From: a virus | Direction: 5' to 3' (one strand) | Virus record (IMG/VR): IMGVR_UViG_3300005856_000091 | Length of the DNA: 26,931 nucleotides | Shown here: positions 1-19,810 of the stretch, piece after piece | Layout: every line of letters starts with the position of its first letter | How positions within the stretch are numbered: position 1 is the first letter of the stretch | Notes under the pieces: generated by a model | Databases searched by the model: none | What the model was told of the DNA's origin: nothing | The model's input: only the letters and a program-made list of their open reading frames with translations | Program-made: the position numbers and the translations under genes

Positions 1-373
<373 letters not shown>

Positions 374-806: not shown

Positions 807-1187
807 TTAGTAGTAGGCTGCTGTTGGAACCAATGCGTTAACTATTGCGTCAGCTACATCGCTTGGGCATCCAAGTGCTACAAACCTGTTCTTAACTCCT
901 TGGGATGCTGTTACTAGTGTTGCTCCACTGTGGCTGAATAGCATCTTTGTGAGCACTTCTCCAAGAGCTATACAAACGCCGTAGATGCCTGATGGAAGCC
1001 CCTTGTCTGCTAGTATAGCCTTTACTCTATCTATGTTTGCTCTAACAGCCGCAACAGAACCTTGGTATCTTGGAACCATTATTGTGTCGTGTATGGCTGT
1101 TAGCACTGCCTTGACATTGTCTCCAGAGTACTTTGTTGTGTACTTAGTTATTTGTTCTGAAAGTGTGTATCCAGCCATGAAGCTCAT
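807..1187 (-). CDS. Major capsid protein 2 (SIRV2-like fold)
   Basis: Paralog of the adjacent MCP (DRVKAILADKGLPSGIYGVCIALGEVL...GVKNRFVALG..DVADAIV); GGGGTGAG RBS 5 nt upstream. Confidence 0.8.
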   Translation of the reverse strand: MSFMAGYTLSEQITKYTTKYSGDNVKAVLTAIHDTIMVPRYQGSVAAVRANIDRVKAILADKGLPSGIYGVCIALGEVLTKMLFSHSGATLVTASQGVKNRFVALGCPSDVADAIVNALVPTAAYY

Positions 1188-1200
1188 ATCATCTCACCCC

Positions 1201-1557
1201 CTAGCTAACAACAAGTGTTGCTAACTTGTCTAGAACTGCAGGGTCAGCACCTTTTGCAATATACTCGTTTTTAACGCCAGCGATAACAGCATCTGGCAAC
1301 CTACCCTTAGTGGCTTTTGCAATTCTTAGAAGAGCCTCTGCAAACGCTATGTGAATACCCCACTTACCCTGTGGAACTCCGAGATCTATCAAAACCTCTC
1401 TAACCCTCTCAACAAGCATTCTGAATGGTGTTGCATAGTTGATGTACTTTGTTACAGCTATTTGCTGTGAAGCTGCATACCTAGTAGCTACTCTATCTGG
1501 CGATGTCTTGGCACTGAACATCTGAGCCATGTCTCCAGCAGACTTAGTTATAGGCAT
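1201..1557 (-). CDS. Major capsid protein 1 (SIRV2-like fold)
   Basis: Aligns by eye along its length to the SIRV2 MCP as I recall it: SP..VA....A.....F..V..VL...G....I...F...R......I.G.K..YI...ADP.VLD; GGTGAA RBS. Confidence 0.87.
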   Translation of the reverse strand: MPITKSAGDMAQMFSAKTSPDRVATRYAASQQIAVTKYINYATPFRMLVERVREVLIDLGVPQGKWGIHIAFAEALLRIAKATKGRLPDAVIAGVKNEYIAKGADPAVLDKLATLVVS

Positions 1558-4144: not shown

Positions 4145-4411
4145 ATGTCATCAAATATTTTGTTGCCTCCAGTTATTATGGATGTTGATGGTTGTACTGT
4201 CTATATATGGAACGTGATTATAGCTACGAATGTTTTTGGTAAGAAGAGATACTTGGTTACTGCACAGGCAAAATGCTACGGTAAGCTATCTAAGCAGGCG
4301 TGCTTCGATGTATCTGATGAGGATGACCTTAGAAACGTTTTAAAGAAAGAGGTAGCCCTGTTCAAGTCAATAGTTTTGTCAGGTGCTCACGATGTCTATG
4401 CAGAGGGGTGA
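4145..4411 (+). CDS. Hypothetical protein (88 aa)
   Basis: GAGGAG RBS; overlaps the start of the giant ORF. Confidence 0.8.
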   Translation: MSSNILLPPVIMDVDGCTVYIWNVIIATNVFGKKRYLVTAQAKCYGKLSKQACFDVSDEDDLRNVLKKEVALFKSIVLSGAHDVYAEG

Positions 4412-7400
4412 AGAGGGAGAGTTTAGAATAGATGAGCTGTACATAGCTGCTGCAAAGGAGTTGATAGAATCTGTAGCAAGCAGCATTACATTGATTCATA
4501 GCTCAGGAGTTTATCAAATATCTTTTGATTCTATAAAACTTGAAGCACTTGCAAACGCCCTTAATGTATTTGGATGGACGGATCCAATTGGAGAGATTAA
4601 GAATTGGTTCTACGACAGGTTGAAAGAGATTGCTACGTTCTTCAGCAGCACTGTTGATGCAATAACGAAGCCCATAAAAGATGTTGTTAACAGTGTTTGG
4701 AGCTTTGTACAGGGAATACCAAATGCGGTTGTTAGCGGCGTCAAAGTTTTTATAGATACGCTTTCTAGCAGTGTTTCAAGCCTTGCTTCATCTGTGTCGA
4801 GCTATTTCACTCATGTTCTAAGCAAGCTCTCAGACATAGCATCATCAATATCGGCATCAATTTCATCAGCAGTTTCAAGCATTCTGCAGGGAGTTTTATC
4901 TGCTCTGTCAAGCGTTTCATCAACTATTTCAAGCGTTTTTCTAAGGCTGTGGGACTCGATACAGGTTATAGGTTCAAGCATATCTGATGCTTTTGGAAGG
5001 CTGTCAAGCATCTTATCATCTATACCGTCTGCAATTATTCAGGGTGTTCAATCACTGTTTGCACAGCTGTCATCATCTCTCCAAGGCATTGGTCAGAGCA
5101 TACTTGGGGCGTTACAGAGCTTTGCATCATCTATTCAGGGTGCTATACAGGGGGTAGTATCATCGCTATCCTATTTTGCTAGCCAGATATGGAATGGTAT
5201 ACAGAGCATTGGAATCTCTTTGGCTGGTGTTGCTGATAGGATTTGGAGCGGTCTGCAATCAGTTGGTCAAAGCGTTTTGGGTGCTTTGCAGAGCTTTGCT
5301 GGGATGGTGCAGAGTGCTATAAGTAGTGTTGCTGGTACTCTATCTGGTCTCATTTCAAGGGTTTGGGAAGGTCTTCAGTCAATAGGTTCAGCGGTATCGG
5401 GGTTCTTCAGCAGGGTGTGGGAAGGTATACAGAGCTTTGGCAAGATGGTTTCAGATTTCTTTGGAAGGATATGGGATGGTATCCAGAGCGGGTTGAAGTG
5501 GGTATGGGATCAGCTACAGGTATTCGGTAAATGGCTGTGGGACAGCATTCAGGGGGGTCTAAAATGGCTTTGGGACGCTCTAACATCTATTGGTTCAAAG
5601 ATTTGGGAGGGTCTTCAATGGTTTGGCAAATCTGTTTCTGACATGTTTATCAGGGTTTGGGACGGTCTTCAGGCAGTTGGTAAATTGGTTTTGAGCGGGG
5701 TAGAGGGTCTTGGAACAGCTATTCAAAACGCTTTATCAGCTATTCAGAGATTTATTGAATATGAGTTTAGCATTGTTGGTGGTGCTCTCTCAAGCTTTGG
5801 AAGGCTTGTTGTAGATGGCTTTACAAGGATTGGTCAATCTCTCTCTGACTTCGCCAAGATCTTCGACAAGTGGGCAACTACACTATATGGAGGTGTGCAG
5901 GCGATTGGAAGCGGATTCACACAGTTTCTACAGTATATCTCTAATCTGCCGAATGTGCTTCAGAGCATATTTGGAGGCATAGCTGACTTCTTTAAGAGGG
6001 TTGGTGAAGTGATAGCGGAGTTCGTTAGAAGCCCGCTTGAGTTTATAAAGAAGCACATTATTGAGCCTATTTGGGGAGGAATACAGTGGCTAGCTGGAAA
6101 GATGTGGGATGGGCTTCAGTGGATGTGGCAGAAAATAGTTGAGGGTGCTCAATGGCTTTGGGGTGCTCTTCAGCAAGCAGGTCAATGGATGCTTAACGCA
6201 ATTGCAGGAATAGCCAGTGCTATTCAAAACGCTTTTACTGGAATTGCTAATACTATATCTGGTGTTGGTAAAACTGCATATGAGTTTATTATAAACATGT
6301 TTATGAAGATTAAAGAATTGGTTTCTGAATCTATGCAAAAATATGTTAAAGGAGTTATATCAGAGTTTATGAGTGCTGTTGGCTGGGGTTCACCCCCTGG
6401 TTTAACTTCTGATAACTTTGTAAAGGCTTGGGGAACATCGCTTTTCTGGTCACTGCCTCTATATGCATTTGCATTAGCTGTCGAGATACCGATTAGGGGG
6501 GCTGCGTATGGGCTTCAGCAGTTGGGCAATAAATTAAGTGGTATGGATTGGAAGATTAGACTGTCTTTGAAGTTTCTTGGGGCTGGAGGAGACATAGAAT
6601 TCAACTTGGCTAAGGCTCTTGGCGATTCTCTTCAGAACTTTGGCAAAGAGATGATGAAGCATGCTGAAAAGTTCTATGAGCCGTTCTGGATGGGCATAGG
6701 TTTCTGGTTCGGCAGATATGCATCGACGCTTCTAATATATAATCTCAGGAACTTCATACCAATTGAGATGCCATCGTTTAGAGAGGCTGAGGAGCTGTGG
6801 AACAGGATAAGGTCAACTGCTCTAACATCTTTCAAGATTCCTGAGGACGTGGTTGGGAAGCCTGAGGACGCTGAGGATGTTATTATAAACTTCCTAAAGA
6901 TGAGGGGCTACAGTGACTATGTTATCAAGCTTGCGTTTGCAGATGAGAATGAGTTCTATCTGGAGATTGAGGACAGGTTTGGCGTTAAGAGGAAGATACC
7001 ACTGGCTGATGCGTGGAGAGTTCCGCCTCCAAGCGACATAATAACAATGATGATCAGAGATGTGATAATTGATCCTAAGTACTTTGCAGCAGTTATGAGG
7101 ATGCAGGGATTCAACAAGGACACATCTATACTGTACTACTACCTTCACTTCAGGTACCCGCCTCCTGAGAGGCTTGCTGAGTTCTATTGGCGTGGAATGG
7201 CAAGGGTTCTGTGGTTTGACAGGACATTGGAGGAGGAAGGTCTAAAGACATTCCTAGGGCTTGAAGCTATCAAAGCAACACCTCCTAGAAAGATAAATGA
7301 GAATCCAAACATATTGAATAACATGATTATGATGTACATGAAGTGGCACGACTATGCACCTTTCGCATGGCAACCAGGGTTCCCAACAGATAAGTCAATC

Positions 7401-10148
7401 ATGGTTGAGCTAATGGCTGACCTGCCAGACAAAGTTGATTTTCGATGGCTTACAAGGTACGGCATTATTGAGCACATGTCCTCCCTCGGAGTTAAGATGG
7501 ATACAACAATTGATGGTATTGTGTCTGCTATTCAGGGTGCTAAGGGTGATGAGCTTACCAAAAAGCAGGTGACGCCAGAGATTTCTCTAGATGTGTCTCT
7601 GCTTTCAAGGTTCCTCATAGCTAGGGGTATGCACCCGTATCTAGCTTCAATTGTTTCTGTTGCTGAATCCCATGTTATGCTAGCAGATGAGATGACTCTT
7701 CTCAGATCAGGGTTCCTATACCTGTACAGATGGGGAATGGCTAATGTTGACCAGCTTGAGCAGTTGATGAGCGGTCTATTCGTTATTAAGTTCACGACGG
7801 GATACATAGACACCGATGGAACTCCACACACATATACATATAACAAGCCTGTGTTCTGGCTACCTGCTGAGAGGAGGCTTCTGCAGTTGAGGGCAGCTAT
7901 GGATAGGTATTATGAGCTGTTCAGGGACTTTGTTAGGGAGGTTGAGAGGGGTGTTAGATCTCTAGCATTGCACACAAAGTCAACTGCTGAAGAGGTTAAG
8001 AAGTATGTTTCTCAACTTAATCTAGATAAGGAGACAAGCGAAGCTGTTAACAAGGCTCTTTCAAGCATTTCACAGGGGTTTGCAGAGGACTTGATAAAGA
8101 GATATGGAGGGGTGGTAACTGGGAGGCTTAGCGATGACATAGCTAAGATATCTGGGGTTAAGGTGTCTTTCACAGTTGATGATGTTTACATAGATTCTTG
8201 GATTAAGTCTGCAGAGCTTACTAGAACTATTGAGAGCAGGACTTGGATAAGGCACTACGCCACTAGGCTTGTTGCATGGATCCTATACAGAACTTCATAT
8301 GGTTGGACACCTGTTGAGAAGTTCAGCAACTTGACAGCGATTCTTCTTGCAAGGGGCTGGATAACTATTGAGGAGAAAGAGTTCCTTGATACAATAGCTA
8401 GCTGGGTCTATGGAATTGTTAGGAGGGAGATGATACCAACACCACTACAGCTAGCAACATTCTCAGAATACATGAAGGTATCGGATGACTTAATTGAAAA
8501 GGTTCTTGAAGAGCACAGGGTTCCTGATGATTATAGACAGCTATACAAGCAGTACATATCGTACAGGTTCATAAAAACTGATTTCAAGACATATATAAAC
8601 AGGGCTAGGAGAGCATATGTGCTTGGCATAATCAGTGATGCTGATTGGGGCAGTATTCTGAAGGAAGCTGTTGAGAAGTATGGCTTCAGAAATGAGGAGG
8701 TATCAATTATGCAGAGAATTGCAGATCTTGAGGAGCAGATGGAGAGCGTAAGGGTTTGGAGACCATCGCTAACAACAATCGCTACAATATCAGAAGTTGT
8801 ACCAATACCAGATGACGTAATGAACAAGATCTTTGCAAAGTTCAGGATAGACCCATTGATAGCCCCGTACGTAACTGAGTATGTTAAGAGGAGACCTCTG
8901 GTAGATGAGCTTAGGAGCCTTGTTAACGAGTACTACAGGATGAAGTACTACTCGGCTGTGTACAAGCAGACAATACCTCAAGACATTGAGCAGGCTGTCC
9001 AGAAATACATGCAGCTGTTTGGATTGACAGAGGAGGAGAGGGCTATCAGAGACCTTGTTGCAAAGATTAGGGAGACTGTAGAGATGTGGAGAGAGTCTGC
9101 AAGGGAGTACATACCAACACCATCTATGCTGGCAACAATTGCTGAGTATGTACCGTCACTAACAGATGAGATGATCAACAAAGTGCTGGAGGCTAGGAGG
9201 GTTCCACAGGAGTGGAGAGCTATATGGATGCAGTACATAAAGGCTAGGACTCTTGCTGATGAGGTTAGGACGCTTATAAACGCTTTCTATCGTATGAAGA
9301 GATATGCTATGCTATATGGATATGCTGTTCCTAAGGATGTTGAGAATACTGTGATTAAGTACGCTAAAATGATTGGCGTAACAGATGAGGAGAAGAGTAT
9401 AAGGGACTTGATTGCTGAGATCGAGGCTACTGTTGATAACTGGAGAGATCTTGCTAGAAGGGGAGAGAGCATACCAACTCTATCGCAGCTTGTTGTAATG
9501 GCTGAGTACATTAATGTACCTGTTGACTATGTTAAGAAGGTTCTTGAGGCTAGGAGGGTTGAGCATACATACGCAAATCTATGGCTTCAGTACCTCTATG
9601 CAAGGTCTATTTCTACAGAGGTTAACAGGGTTGTTAGAGCGTTTGAGGATCTATACATAAGGTTTGCTGTCCCAGAAGATGTTGTTAAACAAGTAACTTC
9701 GCTGATGGCTCAGGGTGGGTGGACTGAGCAGGAGCTTAAGATATTTGGCTTCGAGCTAGACCTTAGAAGAGCATACAGAGTTCTAACAATGATGATGCCG
9801 AGCATAAGGCAGTTCATTACAGATGCACAGTACTTGTCTAACTACGAGAAGCTTTTCCAAGACCTTCTACAGACATATGCAATAGATGCTGAGAAATATA
9901 AGAAGCAAGTTGACTACTACAAGAGGTTGCTGAAGAATAGGAGGCTTTGGAGACACTTCTCATGGTACAGAACACAGCTAACATATGCATTGATGTACGG
10001 CTCTATGACAGAGGATGAAATTAAGAAAAAGCTACAGCAGTTCGTTAACCTAGGGCTGATAGATGAAGATGAATTGAACGTAATAATTGATGGTATAAAG
10101 ATTAGGGCTGCTGCTTACGCTGCTTACAGGGCTTTGAGATATAGGTGA
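4392..10148 (+). CDS. Very large minor virion protein (~1920 aa) with tape-measure-like amphipathic repeats and ~115-aa C-terminal repeats
   Basis: Uninterrupted ORF; 11/18-residue W-spaced repeats in the N-terminal third; repeated IPTxSxLATxxEY...KVLEARRV units; AGGTG RBS favours ATG 4392 (GTG 4383 also possible). Confidence 0.85.
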   Translation: MSMQRGEEGEFRIDELYIAAAKELIESVASSITLIHSSGVYQISFDSIKLEALANALNVFGWTDPIGEIKNWFYDRLKEIATFFSSTVDAITKPIKDVVNSVWSFVQGIPNAVVSGVKVFIDTLSSSVSSLASSVSSYFTHVLSKLSDIASSISASISSAVSSILQGVLSALSSVSSTISSVFLRLWDSIQVIGSSISDAFGRLSSILSSIPSAIIQGVQSLFAQLSSSLQGIGQSILGALQSFASSIQGAIQGVVSSLSYFASQIWNGIQSIGISLAGVADRIWSGLQSVGQSVLGALQSFAGMVQSAISSVAGTLSGLISRVWEGLQSIGSAVSGFFSRVWEGIQSFGKMVSDFFGRIWDGIQSGLKWVWDQLQVFGKWLWDSIQGGLKWLWDALTSIGSKIWEGLQWFGKSVSDMFIRVWDGLQAVGKLVLSGVEGLGTAIQNALSAIQRFIEYEFSIVGGALSSFGRLVVDGFTRIGQSLSDFAKIFDKWATTLYGGVQAIGSGFTQFLQYISNLPNVLQSIFGGIADFFKRVGEVIAEFVRSPLEFIKKHIIEPIWGGIQWLAGKMWDGLQWMWQKIVEGAQWLWGALQQAGQWMLNAIAGIASAIQNAFTGIANTISGVGKTAYEFIINMFMKIKELVSESMQKYVKGVISEFMSAVGWGSPPGLTSDNFVKAWGTSLFWSLPLYAFALAVEIPIRGAAYGLQQLGNKLSGMDWKIRLSLKFLGAGGDIEFNLAKALGDSLQNFGKEMMKHAEKFYEPFWMGIGFWFGRYASTLLIYNLRNFIPIEMPSFREAEELWNRIRSTALTSFKIPEDVVGKPEDAEDVIINFLKMRGYSDYVIKLAFADENEFYLEIEDRFGVKRKIPLADAWRVPPPSDIITMMIRDVIIDPKYFAAVMRMQGFNKDTSILYYYLHFRYPPPERLAEFYWRGMARVLWFDRTLEEEGLKTFLGLEAIKATPPRKINENPNILNNMIMMYMKWHDYAPFAWQPGFPTDKSIMVELMADLPDKVDFRWLTRYGIIEHMSSLGVKMDTTIDGIVSAIQGAKGDELTKKQVTPEISLDVSLLSRFLIARGMHPYLASIVSVAESHVMLADEMTLLRSGFLYLYRWGMANVDQLEQLMSGLFVIKFTTGYIDTDGTPHTYTYNKPVFWLPAERRLLQLRAAMDRYYELFRDFVREVERGVRSLALHTKSTAEEVKKYVSQLNLDKETSEAVNKALSSISQGFAEDLIKRYGGVVTGRLSDDIAKISGVKVSFTVDDVYIDSWIKSAELTRTIESRTWIRHYATRLVAWILYRTSYGWTPVEKFSNLTAILLARGWITIEEKEFLDTIASWVYGIVRREMIPTPLQLATFSEYMKVSDDLIEKVLEEHRVPDDYRQLYKQYISYRFIKTDFKTYINRARRAYVLGIISDADWGSILKEAVEKYGFRNEEVSIMQRIADLEEQMESVRVWRPSLTTIATISEVVPIPDDVMNKIFAKFRIDPLIAPYVTEYVKRRPLVDELRSLVNEYYRMKYYSAVYKQTIPQDIEQAVQKYMQLFGLTEEERAIRDLVAKIRETVEMWRESAREYIPTPSMLATIAEYVPSLTDEMINKVLEARRVPQEWRAIWMQYIKARTLADEVRTLINAFYRMKRYAMLYGYAVPKDVENTVIKYAKMIGVTDEEKSIRDLIAEIEATVDNWRDLARRGESIPTLSQLVVMAEYINVPVDYVKKVLEARRVEHTYANLWLQYLYARSISTEVNRVVRAFEDLYIRFAVPEDVVKQVTSLMAQGGWTEQELKIFGFELDLRRAYRVLTMMMPSIRQFITDAQYLSNYEKLFQDLLQTYAIDAEKYKKQVDYYKRLLKNRRLWRHFSWYRTQLTYALMYGSMTEDEIKKKLQQFVNLGLIDEDELNVIIDGIKIRAAAYAAYRALRYR

Positions 10149-10205: not shown

Positions 10206-10394
10206 ATGTCCTCAACACATGTCAAGGATCAGAAGACTCAAACACCTCAGTTGCCTGACACTAGCGAGTTGCTTAAGAAGATGGACAGGGATTTGGAGGA
10301 GATGAGGAAGAGGTTTGAGCAGTTGATTAAGAAGATGGATGAGGATCTTGAGAGGATTAGAAAGCAGTCTGGTGGTTCAAGTGCAAAGCCTTAG
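10206..10394 (+). CDS. Small coiled-coil protein with an 18-aa tandem repeat
   Basis: ELLKKMDRDLEEMRKRF / EQLIKKMDEDLERIRKQ; AGGTGA RBS. Confidence 0.75.
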   Translation: MSSTHVKDQKTQTPQLPDTSELLKKMDRDLEEMRKRFEQLIKKMDEDLERIRKQSGGSSAKP

Positions 10395-11676
10395 CGATGT
10401 CGTTAGAAAGATTATTGAAGAGAAACAGAGGTATGCACAGAAAGTTGCGACTGAGGATGCTCTTCAGCAAAACGTTTTCGACATATATCTTTTTTCTGAT
10501 CAGATAGGCTTCCAGTTTGATCAGGTTATCCTAGACTCTATATTCACCTCATTAGTTGGCATCGCATTTTATGGTTTAAACCCTTCTGAGATACCCATCT
10601 TCAACCTGTGCTTCGATACAAGCCTTCCGTCTTCTGATGAATACGTTAGAGGTAAGATAATAAACGTTCAGAACATATCCTGCTTAGATAAGTACCCAGA
10701 GATCTCAACATATATCAATGAAGCTGTAAATGCTTTGAAGCCTAGCATGATACAGAAGTGTTACTGGGGCGTGTCAACATATGGAGATTGCTATGTTGAT
10801 CCATCTGTCGTTAGAGATTATTTGAGGTCAACAATGCTTAGAGTGTTCAAGATTCCTAGGGCTGAAGAAACTCAGAAGAAAATACACGACTCTTTCATTG
10901 CAAATCTAGATATGTTGCCTGACCCGATGAAGGCTGGATGGGAGATGAGCAACTACAGTTTTGAGGCAAAGATTAGGGATCCCTACTGGGACTATGCATG
11001 GTGGGATCTGAGTTTTTGGGCGGAGGAGGAATCATACATAGTTAACTATGAGAAAAACCCTGTTCCTGCTAACCCAGAGCATGCAATGGATGTTATGGTG
11101 GTGGCGTTCTGGGATCTTGGCATATGGGACTATAGCTTCTGGGCTGAGGAGACCCACAGCACTCCTGAAGGCATTGAAATGCTTGAAAAATTCGGCGATC
11201 TATATGATTCTGTTATGGCGATAGCTGACAAGATATCGTTCGAGGCTAAGTCAAGGTTGCTTACAACACCTCTAATTGTTGCTAATTACCAGACAGTTGA
11301 AGAGAGGAAGAACTGGTCAATTAGTAAGAGAGTTGATGAATTTGGATATTCAAAGGTATGGATATACACTATAAGAAATATTGTGAGGAGCATTGTTGGC
11401 GGTGTTCCCCCAGGTGTTTTCAGGGTGTATGAATCCGCTGCTATGAGCCTTGTGTCAAGAGTTGGTAGACAAGGTGGGTGGGGCTACGAAGCATTCAGGT
11501 CTATGGATATGGATACGTTCAGGAAGCAATGGATTGATGAGTGGAGCAACAAGGGGCTGGATCCAGACCTTCTCAGAAATATATTTGATGCAGTTATTAG
11601 AGAGGTTAAAACGTTTTCTGGCGAAAGATTTAAACAAAAGGTTCTGCGGCAAACTTTATATGGTGGTTTATTCTGA
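10381..11676 (+). CDS. Minor structural protein with W-D aromatic repeats and a C-terminal MCP-like domain
   Basis: YWDYAWWDLSFWAEE / FWDLGIWDYSFWAEE repeat; C-terminus aligns with MCP1; GGTGG RBS favours GTG 10381. Confidence 0.75.
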   Translation: MQSLSDVVRKIIEEKQRYAQKVATEDALQQNVFDIYLFSDQIGFQFDQVILDSIFTSLVGIAFYGLNPSEIPIFNLCFDTSLPSSDEYVRGKIINVQNISCLDKYPEISTYINEAVNALKPSMIQKCYWGVSTYGDCYVDPSVVRDYLRSTMLRVFKIPRAEETQKKIHDSFIANLDMLPDPMKAGWEMSNYSFEAKIRDPYWDYAWWDLSFWAEEESYIVNYEKNPVPANPEHAMDVMVVAFWDLGIWDYSFWAEETHSTPEGIEMLEKFGDLYDSVMAIADKISFEAKSRLLTTPLIVANYQTVEERKNWSISKRVDEFGYSKVWIYTIRNIVRSIVGGVPPGVFRVYESAAMSLVSRVGRQGGWGYEAFRSMDMDTFRKQWIDEWSNKGLDPDLLRNIFDAVIREVKTFSGERFKQKVLRQTLYGGLF

Positions 11677-11691
11677 ATAGAGGTGAGGGGA

Positions 11692-11949
11692 ATGCTGGAC
11701 ATGTGGTACGACCCTCCAACAAGAAACCCCAAAAAACCATTGGTGTGGATACTGTTCGACAGCTTTGTGATAGGGTTGTTGGCTTTTGCAGCTAGCCTGC
11801 CATACGATAGGATACCTACTCATCTAGACGTCTACATAGCTTTGAGGGCTTTCATATATTCGTTTGCTATGCAGCTCTTTGTTGAGTACGGGGTTAAGCC
11901 CTATTGGAGGAATAGGAAGAATAACGGTTGGGATGAGGGTGGTGAATAG
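11692..11949 (+). CDS. Small two-TM membrane protein (envelope or holin-like)
   Basis: Two hydrophobic segments and a charged C-tail; GAGGTGA RBS favours ATG 11692. Confidence 0.75.
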   Translation: MLDMWYDPPTRNPKKPLVWILFDSFVIGLLAFAASLPYDRIPTHLDVYIALRAFIYSFAMQLFVEYGVKPYWRNRKNNGWDEGGE

Positions 11950-12371: not shown

Positions 12372-12866
12372 ATGAAGCTAAACCTTTGCTGTGGAGATGA
12401 TGTTAGGGAAGGGTATATAAACATCGATGTTAGAAAAACTAAGCATAATGTTTTGGTTCTTGACCTTGAGAAGGAACTGTTAAAGCCTTTCCCAAGCAAC
12501 TCAGCTGAAGAGGTAATAGCGAAGGATTGCATAGAGCATATTTCTTGGAGGAGGGTAGAGGACTTGTTAAGGGATATTCACAGAGTTCTAAAATGTAACG
12601 GAAGAGTCTATATACAAGTCCCAGACCTAGAGGCAATAACTAAGAAAGTTATTTTTAATCCTGACTTCTGTTTTGATATCTTGTGCGGGTGGAAGGCAAT
12701 ATCATACTTTGTATATGGGGGACAAGACTACGAATATAATTATCACAAATCAGGTTTTACAATTGGAACACTAAGAAGGTTGCTTGAGTCCATAGGATTT
12801 GTTGTTGATGATATTATGAATGATGGAGGCAGTAACATCATTACATATGCTAGGAAGAGGTGCTGA
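12372..12866 (+). CDS. Class I SAM-dependent methyltransferase
   Basis: KLNLCCG motif I, YINID, EEVIAKDCIEH, LKCNGRVYIQVPD. Confidence 0.9.
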   Translation: MKLNLCCGDDVREGYINIDVRKTKHNVLVLDLEKELLKPFPSNSAEEVIAKDCIEHISWRRVEDLLRDIHRVLKCNGRVYIQVPDLEAITKKVIFNPDFCFDILCGWKAISYFVYGGQDYEYNYHKSGFTIGTLRRLLESIGFVVDDIMNDGGSNIITYARKRC

Positions 12867-12871
12867 GTTTT

Positions 12872-14017
12872 ATGAACCCCATCCTCTATACATACCCATT
12901 GAACCACATTGTTAGCTTCACGATTGTGGGGAGGAAACATGTGGAGTACTTGAGGAGGCTTAGCATTGCAAAGGTTTATGAGATGGATGAGCTTGTCTTC
13001 CCAAATTTTGTTCCGTCAATAAGGTATGACGCTGTTATACACCCATTTCTGTTCATATGGGAGAGAGTTATAAGCAAAATAGGTAAGGCAACACCTCCAC
13101 AATTAAAGCACAAGGTTAGCAAGTATGTTGATGACTTCAAGAACCAATATGACCAAGTTGTAGCAGTTGATGTTTGCGACAGTGATAGGATAAGCGATTA
13201 CGCTGTGAACTTTCTGAACTATGCCGACAAAATTATTGTGCCAAGCAATTTCTGTGTAGAGGTATATAGGAGTAGCGGGGTCAAAAAACCTGTTTACAGG
13301 GTTCCTCATGGGGTAGATGCAGAGTGGTATACCACTAAAAACATTTGGGGTACAGAGCTTAGGGAGAAAGTAGGTGATTTGGTGAAAGCTGTTTATGAGT
13401 ATAAGGTTAAGAAGAATAAGAAGATTTTGCTTTTCTGGTTGTGGCACAGCCCCGAGAGGAAGGGGTTTGACGAGGTTCTCAAGGTTTACACAAGGCTAAT
13501 GAAAGAGCGAAACGATATTGTACTGGTTATGAAGGTTGCAACACTCCAATCATTCCTAGTTGCTCATTTGTCTCCCAACTACCCGTCTAAGCCTGAGGAT
13601 CTGGACATAAACTTTGTTGTTGGATGGCTAAGCGAATTCGATAAAATGGCTCTATACGACTTGGCGGACATAACATTGATGTTCAGTATTGGTGGAGGAT
13701 TCGAAATTAACACGTTAGAAAGCTTAGCGAGAGGAGTACCTGTAATAACATCTAATAAAGGGTCGTGGACTGACTATGTTCCACCATTTCTACAGGTTAA
13801 AGCTGGTGAAAGGGTGAAGGTTTTTGACAAGCACGATATTCATGTCGGCTACGGCTATAAGGTGGATGTTGAGGACGCCCTGAACAAGATTCATGATATC
13901 CTAGATAACTATGATGAGTACAAGGCGAGGACAGAGGAGTGGAGTAGTAAAGTATTGGCAAACGAGTATCGATGGGACATAATAGCACAAAAACTTGTTA
14001 AGGTTATACATTGTTGA
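12872..14017 (+). CDS. GT-B glycosyltransferase of the rudivirus/lipothrixvirus type
   Basis: N-terminal YxYPxxHxVSF motif, IIVPSNF, VPHGVD, ERKGFD, GGGFEINTLESLARGVPVI; GAGGTG RBS favours ATG 12872. Confidence 0.92.
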   Translation: MNPILYTYPLNHIVSFTIVGRKHVEYLRRLSIAKVYEMDELVFPNFVPSIRYDAVIHPFLFIWERVISKIGKATPPQLKHKVSKYVDDFKNQYDQVVAVDVCDSDRISDYAVNFLNYADKIIVPSNFCVEVYRSSGVKKPVYRVPHGVDAEWYTTKNIWGTELREKVGDLVKAVYEYKVKKNKKILLFWLWHSPERKGFDEVLKVYTRLMKERNDIVLVMKVATLQSFLVAHLSPNYPSKPEDLDINFVVGWLSEFDKMALYDLADITLMFSIGGGFEINTLESLARGVPVITSNKGSWTDYVPPFLQVKAGERVKVFDKHDIHVGYGYKVDVEDALNKIHDILDNYDEYKARTEEWSSKVLANEYRWDIIAQKLVKVIHC

Positions 14018-19159: not shown

Positions 19160-19810
19160 ATGATCTGGATAAGAAAGTTACTCAAATTGATTTTGCAACA
19201 AGGCTTAACTGTCACGTTTACAGAGGATGAAGCTAGAAAGATAATTGACACAAGGCAGAGGCTTAGACAGTGGTACAACCTAGCATCACAAGGTGTTTTA
19301 GCTGAAACAATTGGTGTTGGACTCAAAGATGCTATCATGGACATTGCAGATGTTGCTAACAAGCTTTATGGGTGGTATGTCCCTCAATTCCAAGTAAGCA
19401 AAATTGCTTTAACTGATGCCGAATTAGAATCTGTCATCAATGATCTGAAGGCGAAGGGTGGTTTGGTTGCTTGGTTTCCGCTTGATAGTCAATACATCTC
19501 TACAAGTCTTGATGAGTTCAAGAAGATTATCTCATGGGACTGGACAGATCATCTACACTACGAAATAAACACATTTGATTGTGAAAACTTTGCATTCTAC
19601 TTTGCATCAAGGGTTGCAAGGATGTTTGGTATTAACACTGTTGGTATTGTGCTTGACTATAGCTCTGCTCATTCATATAACCTTGTCATTGTCAAGGATT
19701 CTCAGGGTGTTAGGTGGATGCTGTACGAGCCTCAACTAGATAGCTTGTTTACCTATGATCAGAGGGATCAAAGCTTTTATGCTATGAAACAGTATGTACT
19801 TCTGTTGTAG
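19160..19810 (+). CDS. Papain/transglutaminase-like cysteine protease domain protein
   Basis: FDCENFA, HSYN and YEPQLD motifs give a Cys-His-Glu triad like the agglutinin C-terminal protease domain; AGGTGGGG RBS. Confidence 0.7.
   Translation: MIWIRKLLKLILQQGLTVTFTEDEARKIIDTRQRLRQWYNLASQGVLAETIGVGLKDAIMDIADVANKLYGWYVPQFQVSKIALTDAELESVINDLKAKGGLVAWFPLDSQYISTSLDEFKKIISWDWTDHLHYEINTFDCENFAFYFASRVARMFGINTVGIVLDYSSAHSYNLVIVKDSQGVRWMLYEPQLDSLFTYDQRDQSFYAMKQYVLLL

Follow-up and report, generated by a model that had tools for sequence, protein, structure and literature searches.

ORF445 and its genomic surroundings

The window analysed here is the whole 26,931-nt stretch of IMG/VR record IMGVR_UViG_3300005856_000091, from a filamentous archaeal virus, and all coordinates refer to it (Table 1). 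It carries adjacent genes for two major capsid proteins (MCPs), both on the minus strand, whose products are related to each other (BLASTP 30% identity, E 2e-13; HHalign of the two families, 99.6%). The lineage is that of a two-MCP, lipothrixvirus-like filamentous archaeal virus. The protein studied, ORF445, has an ambiguous start: ATG 10339 gives 445 aa, and GTG 10381, the choice of gene callers and of most ORF445 homologs, gives 431 aa. Residue numbers are counted from the ATG throughout.

Table 1 Features of the window discussed in the text.
Feature	Coordinates	Strand	Description and basis
MCP2	807..1187	-	126 aa; paralog of MCP1
MCP1	1201..1557	-	118 aa; Pfam Sulf_coat_C 2.8e-6; AFV1 ORF132 (5w7g_B) E 4e-4
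Giant P1070-like protein	4383..10148	+	1921 aa; two genes upstream of ORF445; phrog_7334 E 5e-36
Small upstream ORF	10206..10394	+	62 aa; overlaps ORF445 start; position kept in related loci
ORF445	10339..11676	+	445 aa; homolog of rudiviral minor structural protein (MCP-like MSP), from profile comparison; ORF list and family
Two repeats WDxxxWDxSxWAEE	10978..11160	+	ORF445 residues 214-232 and 256-274; aromatic/acidic
MCP-like domain	11206..11613	+	ORF445 residues ~290-425; AF2 fold, structural ranking, HHalign, conservation
Basic C-terminal helix	11599..11673	+	ORF445 residues 421-445; charge across family, AF2 helix (predicted)
Small downstream ORF	11683..11949	+	88 aa; hydrophobic stretch; directly downstream of ORF445; position kept

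The giant protein is related to a known component of rudiviral virion ends. Its C-terminal part matches phrog_7334 to the end of the 1078-position profile, and BLASTP with the protein finds SIRV8 ORF42 (E 6e-9), SIRV1 ORF1070 (E 1e-5) and SIFV0056 (E 4e-9); P1070 is the terminal-fibre protein of rudiviruses (PMC10541130). The N-terminal repeats of the giant protein are tape-measure-like, and match numerous PHROG families of tape-measure proteins (E as low as 5e-35). In close relatives the gene order is giant protein, an ORF of 52-63 aa, the ORF445 homolog and an ORF of 83-88 aa. Genes of 52-63 aa lie directly upstream of the homolog in contigs L001, L002, L003, L006, L008 and L009, while genes of 83-85 aa lie directly downstream of it in L001-L005, L008 and L009. 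The two small ORFs that flank ORF445 in the window may be its partners.

Genes for an MCP, a glycosyltransferase, a minor structural protein (MSP) and a giant P1070-like protein occur together as a module in the window, in SIRV1 and in contigs L016 and L017, and the glycosyltransferases of the window match rudiviral ones. Placement of the ORF445-type gene in the structural module was also seen in L001-L003, and the divergent family members P0114 and P0072 are encoded inside modules of MCP (PF12193), glycosyltransferase, MSP and giant protein.

Other parts of the window differ between related loci. A block comprising a 138-aa ORF, a methyltransferase and a glycosyltransferase (12372-14017, plus strand) lies downstream of ORF445 here and upstream of its homolog in L008, indicating a rearranged module. 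Beside the capsid genes, positions 1-312 (plus strand) encode the C-terminal zinc-ribbon part of a TnpB/OrfB-like transposon protein; in L001-L003, a 112-aa minus-strand gene upstream of MCP2 takes the place of this fragment. Downstream of an 885-aa repeat protein, a 216-aa protein (19160-19810, plus strand) matches Pfam Lectin_C_term (PF18022) at 2.4e-6, as does its homolog in L001, and is a possible carbohydrate-binding adsorption protein.

An MCP-like domain at the C-terminus of ORF445

A sequence-only reading of the window had proposed that a capsid-protein-like domain is fused to the C-terminus of this minor protein, on the strength of a by-eye alignment with MCP1. The peptides it quoted are present where it placed them, both in MCP1 and in ORF445, where IRNIVRSIV occupies residues 345-353 (nt 11371-11397), GVPPG residues 355-359 (nt 11401-11415) and KGLDPDLL residues 405-412 (nt 11551-11574), all on the plus strand. 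Direct searches gave no sign of the relationship. Pairwise BLASTP of the ORF445 C-terminus against MCP1 and MCP2 offered no support (E 2.1 and 0.31), and neither ORF445 nor MCP1 had a tblastn match among 50,697 records of phages and archaeal viruses. A Pfam scan of ORF445 found no family at E <= 0.1, leaving the curated MCP models (PF12193 Sulf_coat_C and PF21660 MCP_C) unmatched, and PF12193 was likewise matched by 0 of 88 ORF445 family members. A PHROG scan of ORF445 found no family, phrog_7238 included, and no meaningful match to PDB sequences came from phmmer or from profile searches, whether ORF445 or its family was the query.

Comparisons of profiles with profiles gave a different picture. 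Starting from 18 close homologs of ORF445, an exhaustive HMM search yielded 116 cluster representatives (clusters at 50% identity), and 64 MCP homologs, most of them with PF12193, were gathered for comparison. Shallow alignments (13 vs 12 sequences) already produced the register seen by eye, at an HHalign probability of 40-47% (P 2e-4). With 104 C-terminal domains against 66 MCPs, the probability was 92.5% (P 4.7e-7, score 42.5, 81 columns); MCP1 residues 34-116 lay opposite ORF445 residues 331-419, so that GVPQG of MCP1 paired with GVPPG, and KGADPAVL with KGLDPDLL. Reversed alignments reached probabilities of 0.1-0.2%, 60 column shuffles gave scores of 10.2 +/- 2.0 (maximum 16.1), and 60 shuffles in 7-column blocks gave 15.8 +/- 3.1 (maximum 33.7). 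The by-eye alignment was thus recovered in the same register, with shuffled controls scoring far lower.

The domain was also linked to MCPs of known structure. When a domain HMM was run against all six-frame ORFs of AFV1, the best two matches were the solved MCPs ORF132 (E 4e-4) and ORF140 (E 6e-4), the latter spanning HMM positions 33-135, nearly the full domain. When the domain was compared with single sequences, HHalign gave only low probabilities (SIRV1 MCP 0.2%, AFV1 ORF132 6%, AFV1 ORF140 30%); the signal requires profiles on both sides, or the domain-HMM search. Of the two capsid proteins of the window, MCP1 was much the closer to the domain in sequence: HHalign gave 91% against the MCP1 family and only 4% against the MCP2 family. 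At the profile level, the domain is a remote homolog of bona fide MCPs.

The C-terminal location of the domain is as the sequence-only reading had it, whereas its extent is not: that reading began the domain at position 11330, and the conserved module begins at about residue 290-300 (nt ~11206). In nearly all of the 116 representatives the domain makes up the C-terminal third of the 431/445-aa protein. Its arm-like N-terminal part carries the family motif R..T.....NY...E......S.R and is followed by a helical bundle whose motifs in ORF445 are Y364, A367, W381-G382, W398, W402, G406-L407 and L412. Of these positions, Y364, A367, W398, W402, G406, L407 and L412 are near-invariant across the family, with W398, W402, G406 and L407 conserved at 95-99%. 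Upstream of the domain, the WDxxxWDxSxWAEE repeats are kept in close homologs and only loosely in the consensus of the wider family.

The SIRV2-fold MCPs of Adnaviria (AFV1 ORF132/ORF140, SIRV2, SSRV1 and SFV1; PF12193) resemble the domain in combining an arm-like part with a helical bundle, as predicted for ORF445, and in possessing the in-register turns GVPxG and KGxDPxxL. They differ in being free proteins of 120-140 aa that form the main component of the virion, whereas the domain forms the last third of a longer chain of 445 aa. Furthermore, the Trp motifs W381, W398 and W402 are specific to the ORF445 family and absent from MCPs. The arm-like part carries less positive charge than the arms of true MCPs (+1.3 vs +3.6), which makes DNA wrapping in the manner of an MCP doubtful, and the domain is extended by a basic C-terminal helix. 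This helix has a mean net charge of +4.1 and 27% K+R among 93 family members (+4 in ORF445), and in the domain model it is part of a single long helix at residues 120-153 of 156. MCPs are without it, and MCP1 ends where the alignment ends.

Structure prediction was informative for the domain. The full-length AF2 model of ORF445 (13 sequences) was poor (pLDDT 52), with low confidence in the W-D repeat region, and its only compact Foldseek matches were AFV1 ORF140 and ORF132. AF2 modelling of residues 290-445 from an 88-sequence alignment gave a pLDDT of 92.2 and a pTM of 0.81. When this model was compared with the PDB using Foldseek, the top three matches were AFV1 ORF140 chains (E 0.03-0.13, probability 0.99-1.0), with AFV1 ORF132 and the SIRV2 and SIRV-YNP coat proteins lower in the list. 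The model was also aligned, using VIA-align, to all 48,161 PDB representative chains without Foldseek pre-selection. Ranks 1-6 were all adnaviral MCPs (Z 10.8-8.0), namely 3fbz_A at rank 1 (Z 10.8, rmsd 4.1, 101 aligned), SSRV1 6wq0_A (Z 9.6, 113 aligned, model 1-133), 3fbl (Z 9.2), 5w7g_B and 3f2e (both Z 8.4) and SFV1 6d5f_a (Z 8.0, 127 aligned). The first unrelated chain had a Z of 7.3, and the SIFV and PFV2 MCPs fell below it (Z 6.6 and 6.5). Sequence identity within the structural alignments was 9-17%.

Since Z values of 8-11 can be reached by helical-bundle arrangement alone, the case for the fold rests on the exclusive ranking together with its agreement with the sequence profiles. The matches to MCPs in their virion state reach into the N-terminal part of the model, so that the module resembles a whole MCP, beyond its bundle. 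The predicted fold is the alpha-helical fold of MCPs, with an N-terminal arm and a C-terminal helical bundle. Neither a low-probability profile alignment nor a fold unlike that of MCPs was therefore obtained, and the proposed fusion of an MCP-like domain to the C-terminus of a minor protein is backed by both lines of analysis. The C-terminal third of ORF445 is a diverged duplicate of a SIRV2-fold MCP, extended by a basic helix.

Stand-alone, MCP-sized versions of the domain were considered as evolutionary intermediates, and two contigs were examined. Neither was accepted: the short form P0123 is truncated at the end of its contig (L014), and the short form P0107 (contig L015) lies on a 1.1-kb contig of 1.35x coverage.

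Relationship to the rudiviral minor structural protein

The domain HMM matched the C-termini of SIRV1 ORF510 (E 1.4e-7) and SIRV8 ORF38 (466 aa; E 5e-8), and these were the only significant ORFs in their genomes. In full-length comparison, the ORF445 family against these two proteins alone gave an HHalign probability of 94.5% (E 8e-8, 210 columns), which rose to 99.9% over 377 columns when bridging metagenome members were added. Seven more distant members of the family also matched phrog_7238 (best E 1e-7). By these profile comparisons, ORF445 as a whole protein is a homolog of SIRV1 ORF510, a minor structural protein of rudiviruses. The similarity is remote, with no BLAST or PHROG match from ORF445 itself. 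The two proteins are nonetheless of the same length class (430-510 aa), are homologous across the middle region and the C-terminal domain, have the C-terminal signature W..W...GL in common, and have genes that lie in the same module, alongside those for an MCP, a glycosyltransferase and a giant P1070-like protein. They differ in that the aromatic/acidic W-D repeats are specific to close relatives of ORF445, unlike the rudiviral MSP, and in that the window virus has two MCPs (heterodimer type), whereas rudiviruses and Baiyanviruses have a single MCP.

An MCP-like domain in this rudiviral protein has already been described. PMC13700489 (2026) states that the minor structural protein Q8QL30 of rudiviruses, ahmunviruses and Baiyanviruses holds an MCP-like domain ('MCP-like MSP'); we infer that Q8QL30 is SIRV1 ORF510 from where its accession falls, in the SIRV1 record, relative to that of the glycosyltransferase Q8QL34 (ORF335). 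In the same paper, and with reference to Vestergaard 2008, the rudiviral homolog is called a minor structural protein and is said to be present in purified virions at low copy number. A fusion of an MCP with a jelly-roll is mentioned there as well. The kind of feature seen in ORF445 is thus already published. The present analysis extends it to a lipothrixvirus-like lineage with two MCPs, shows that the family is large (116 clusters at 50% identity), puts numbers on the relationship to MCPs at the sequence level, and adds the MCP1-like character of the domain together with its conserved basic tail.

The family does not seem to extend to every two-MCP virus. Run against AFV1 (L013), the domain HMM matched only the two MCPs and no ORF445 homolog, and in SIFV (L012) no ORF was significant. 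These cultured two-MCP viruses seem, from the HMM searches, to be without an ORF445-type minor protein; as they too need filament ends, such a protein is no universal terminator.

Several family members have unusual architectures. When 88 members were scanned, LAGLIDADG_3 (2e-9) and Intein_splicing (4e-5) were each matched by one member, and one member of the family appears to be intein-bearing. The metagenomic protein P0086 (790 aa, domain at residues 653-785) matches phrog_85 with residues 298-407, probably via an intein shared with that family. Another metagenomic protein, P0115 (184 aa), joins an HTH_17/excisionase-like N-terminus to the C-terminal half of the MCP-like domain, and is either a real DNA-binding fusion, or an artefact of assembly or gene calling, or a fragment.

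A proposed place for ORF445 at the filament end

The DNA wrapped by adnaviral MCP dimers is in the A form. MCPs with the SIRV2 fold are dimers that wrap DNA, and the terminal structures of adnaviral virions are built of minor structural proteins (PMC12282232). Against this background, we consider it probable that ORF445 is an MCP-derived minor structural protein that takes or abuts an MCP position at low copy, most plausibly at the filament end. Its incorporation into virions is suggested by homology to a protein reported as structural. Its position at filament ends, in contact with MCPs, is inferred from that homology, from the P1070-like gene two genes upstream, and from the composition of terminal structures. 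In mechanistic terms, the MCP-like domain would allow ORF445, at low copy number, to occupy the place of an MCP in the nucleoprotein helix or to lie against one; the likeliest site would be the filament end, the point at which the lattice has to finish and the terminal structures are joined on. The basic tail would be in contact with DNA or with an acidic partner, and the terminal apparatus, for example the neighbouring P1070-like giant protein, would be reached through the N-terminal ~290 residues. The sequence-only reading had the domain joining the MCP helix so as to nucleate or cap it, with the W-D repeat region binding the terminal structure; a capping or nucleating role is plausible. A complex prediction for the C-terminal domain with MCP2 gave a score of 0.00, but was run without controls and counts neither for nor against binding.

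The same homology evidence (HHalign, AFV1 HMM matches and structural ranking) would also fit an MCP-like domain that works off the virion, as part of an assembly factor, chaperone or regulator that binds free MCP or nascent nucleoprotein by capsid mimicry and, for example, seeds or limits polymerisation. A second MCP paralog, one left out of virions, can occur in rudiviruses (PMC10541130), so that proteins with the MCP fold need not be structural, and the two conserved small ORFs on either side of the ORF445 gene would suit such a function. We nevertheless regard a role off the virion as unlikely, given that the rudiviral homolog is called a minor structural protein in PMC13700489 (citing Vestergaard 2008) and that the ORF445 gene lies in the structural module, by the P1070-like gene.

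The domain might instead bind the genome ends itself, with a homodimer wrapping terminal DNA like an MCP capsomer and the basic helix adding contacts, so as to protect or mark the termini with no docking onto MCPs. The DNA-wrapping dimers of SIRV2-fold MCPs (PMC12282232), the conservation of the basic tail in 93 family members and the joining of a half-domain to an HTH_17/excisionase-like N-terminus in P0115 are all consistent with this possibility. However, MCP arms are far more basic than the arm-like region, and P0115 might be only a fragment or a product of misassembly; we judge direct binding of genome ends to be quite improbable. Finally, a convergent or chance likeness, in which a generic helical bundle with few common motifs has no MCP ancestry, would account for the empty pairwise BLAST searches, the 9-17% identity in structural alignments, Z values of 8-11 that are unexceptional for helical proteins and Foldseek E values of 0.03 or worse, but it is already disfavoured and deserves very little credence, because three independent lines (profile-profile comparison with shuffles, AFV1 HMM matches and structural ranks 1-6) converge on the same family and register, and because, in the contigs examined, an ORF445-type protein was found only where such MCPs are also carried.

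The preferred reading, that of an MCP-derived minor structural protein at the filament end, has a parallel in the vertex- or end-specific capsid paralogs of other viruses, such as phage T4, where gp24, a diverged copy of the capsid protein gp23, occupies special lattice positions (cited in PMC9894754). This likeness is one of analogy only, as the T4 proteins have another fold and symmetry and a special-position role for ORF445 is only proposed. A more specific form of the preferred reading, which we offer tentatively as a possibility, would make the MSP the helix-terminating or helix-starting capsomer of rod-shaped adnaviruses. In the last heterodimer, MCP2 would be paired with the MCP1-like domain in place of MCP1, with the basic tail clamped onto the terminal DNA and the N-terminal part recruiting the P1070-like protein.

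The ICTV profile describes virion ends as made of minor proteins that are specific to the genus, and names the MCP as the only gene that the whole realm has in common (PMC12282232). If true, a capsomer of this kind would give the realm another hallmark gene of wide distribution and would explain in concrete terms how the filaments end. Since the core idea is already in print, and since AFV1 and SIFV are apparently without the protein, the gain is incremental. The question that ORF445 touches is how filamentous viruses of archaea begin and end their helical nucleocapsids and fix to them the terminal structures that recognise the host. A diverged capsid copy joined to an adaptor region, conserved from rudiviruses to the two-MCP lineage and consistently encoded beside the P1070-like gene, is an obvious candidate for the joint between lattice and terminus.
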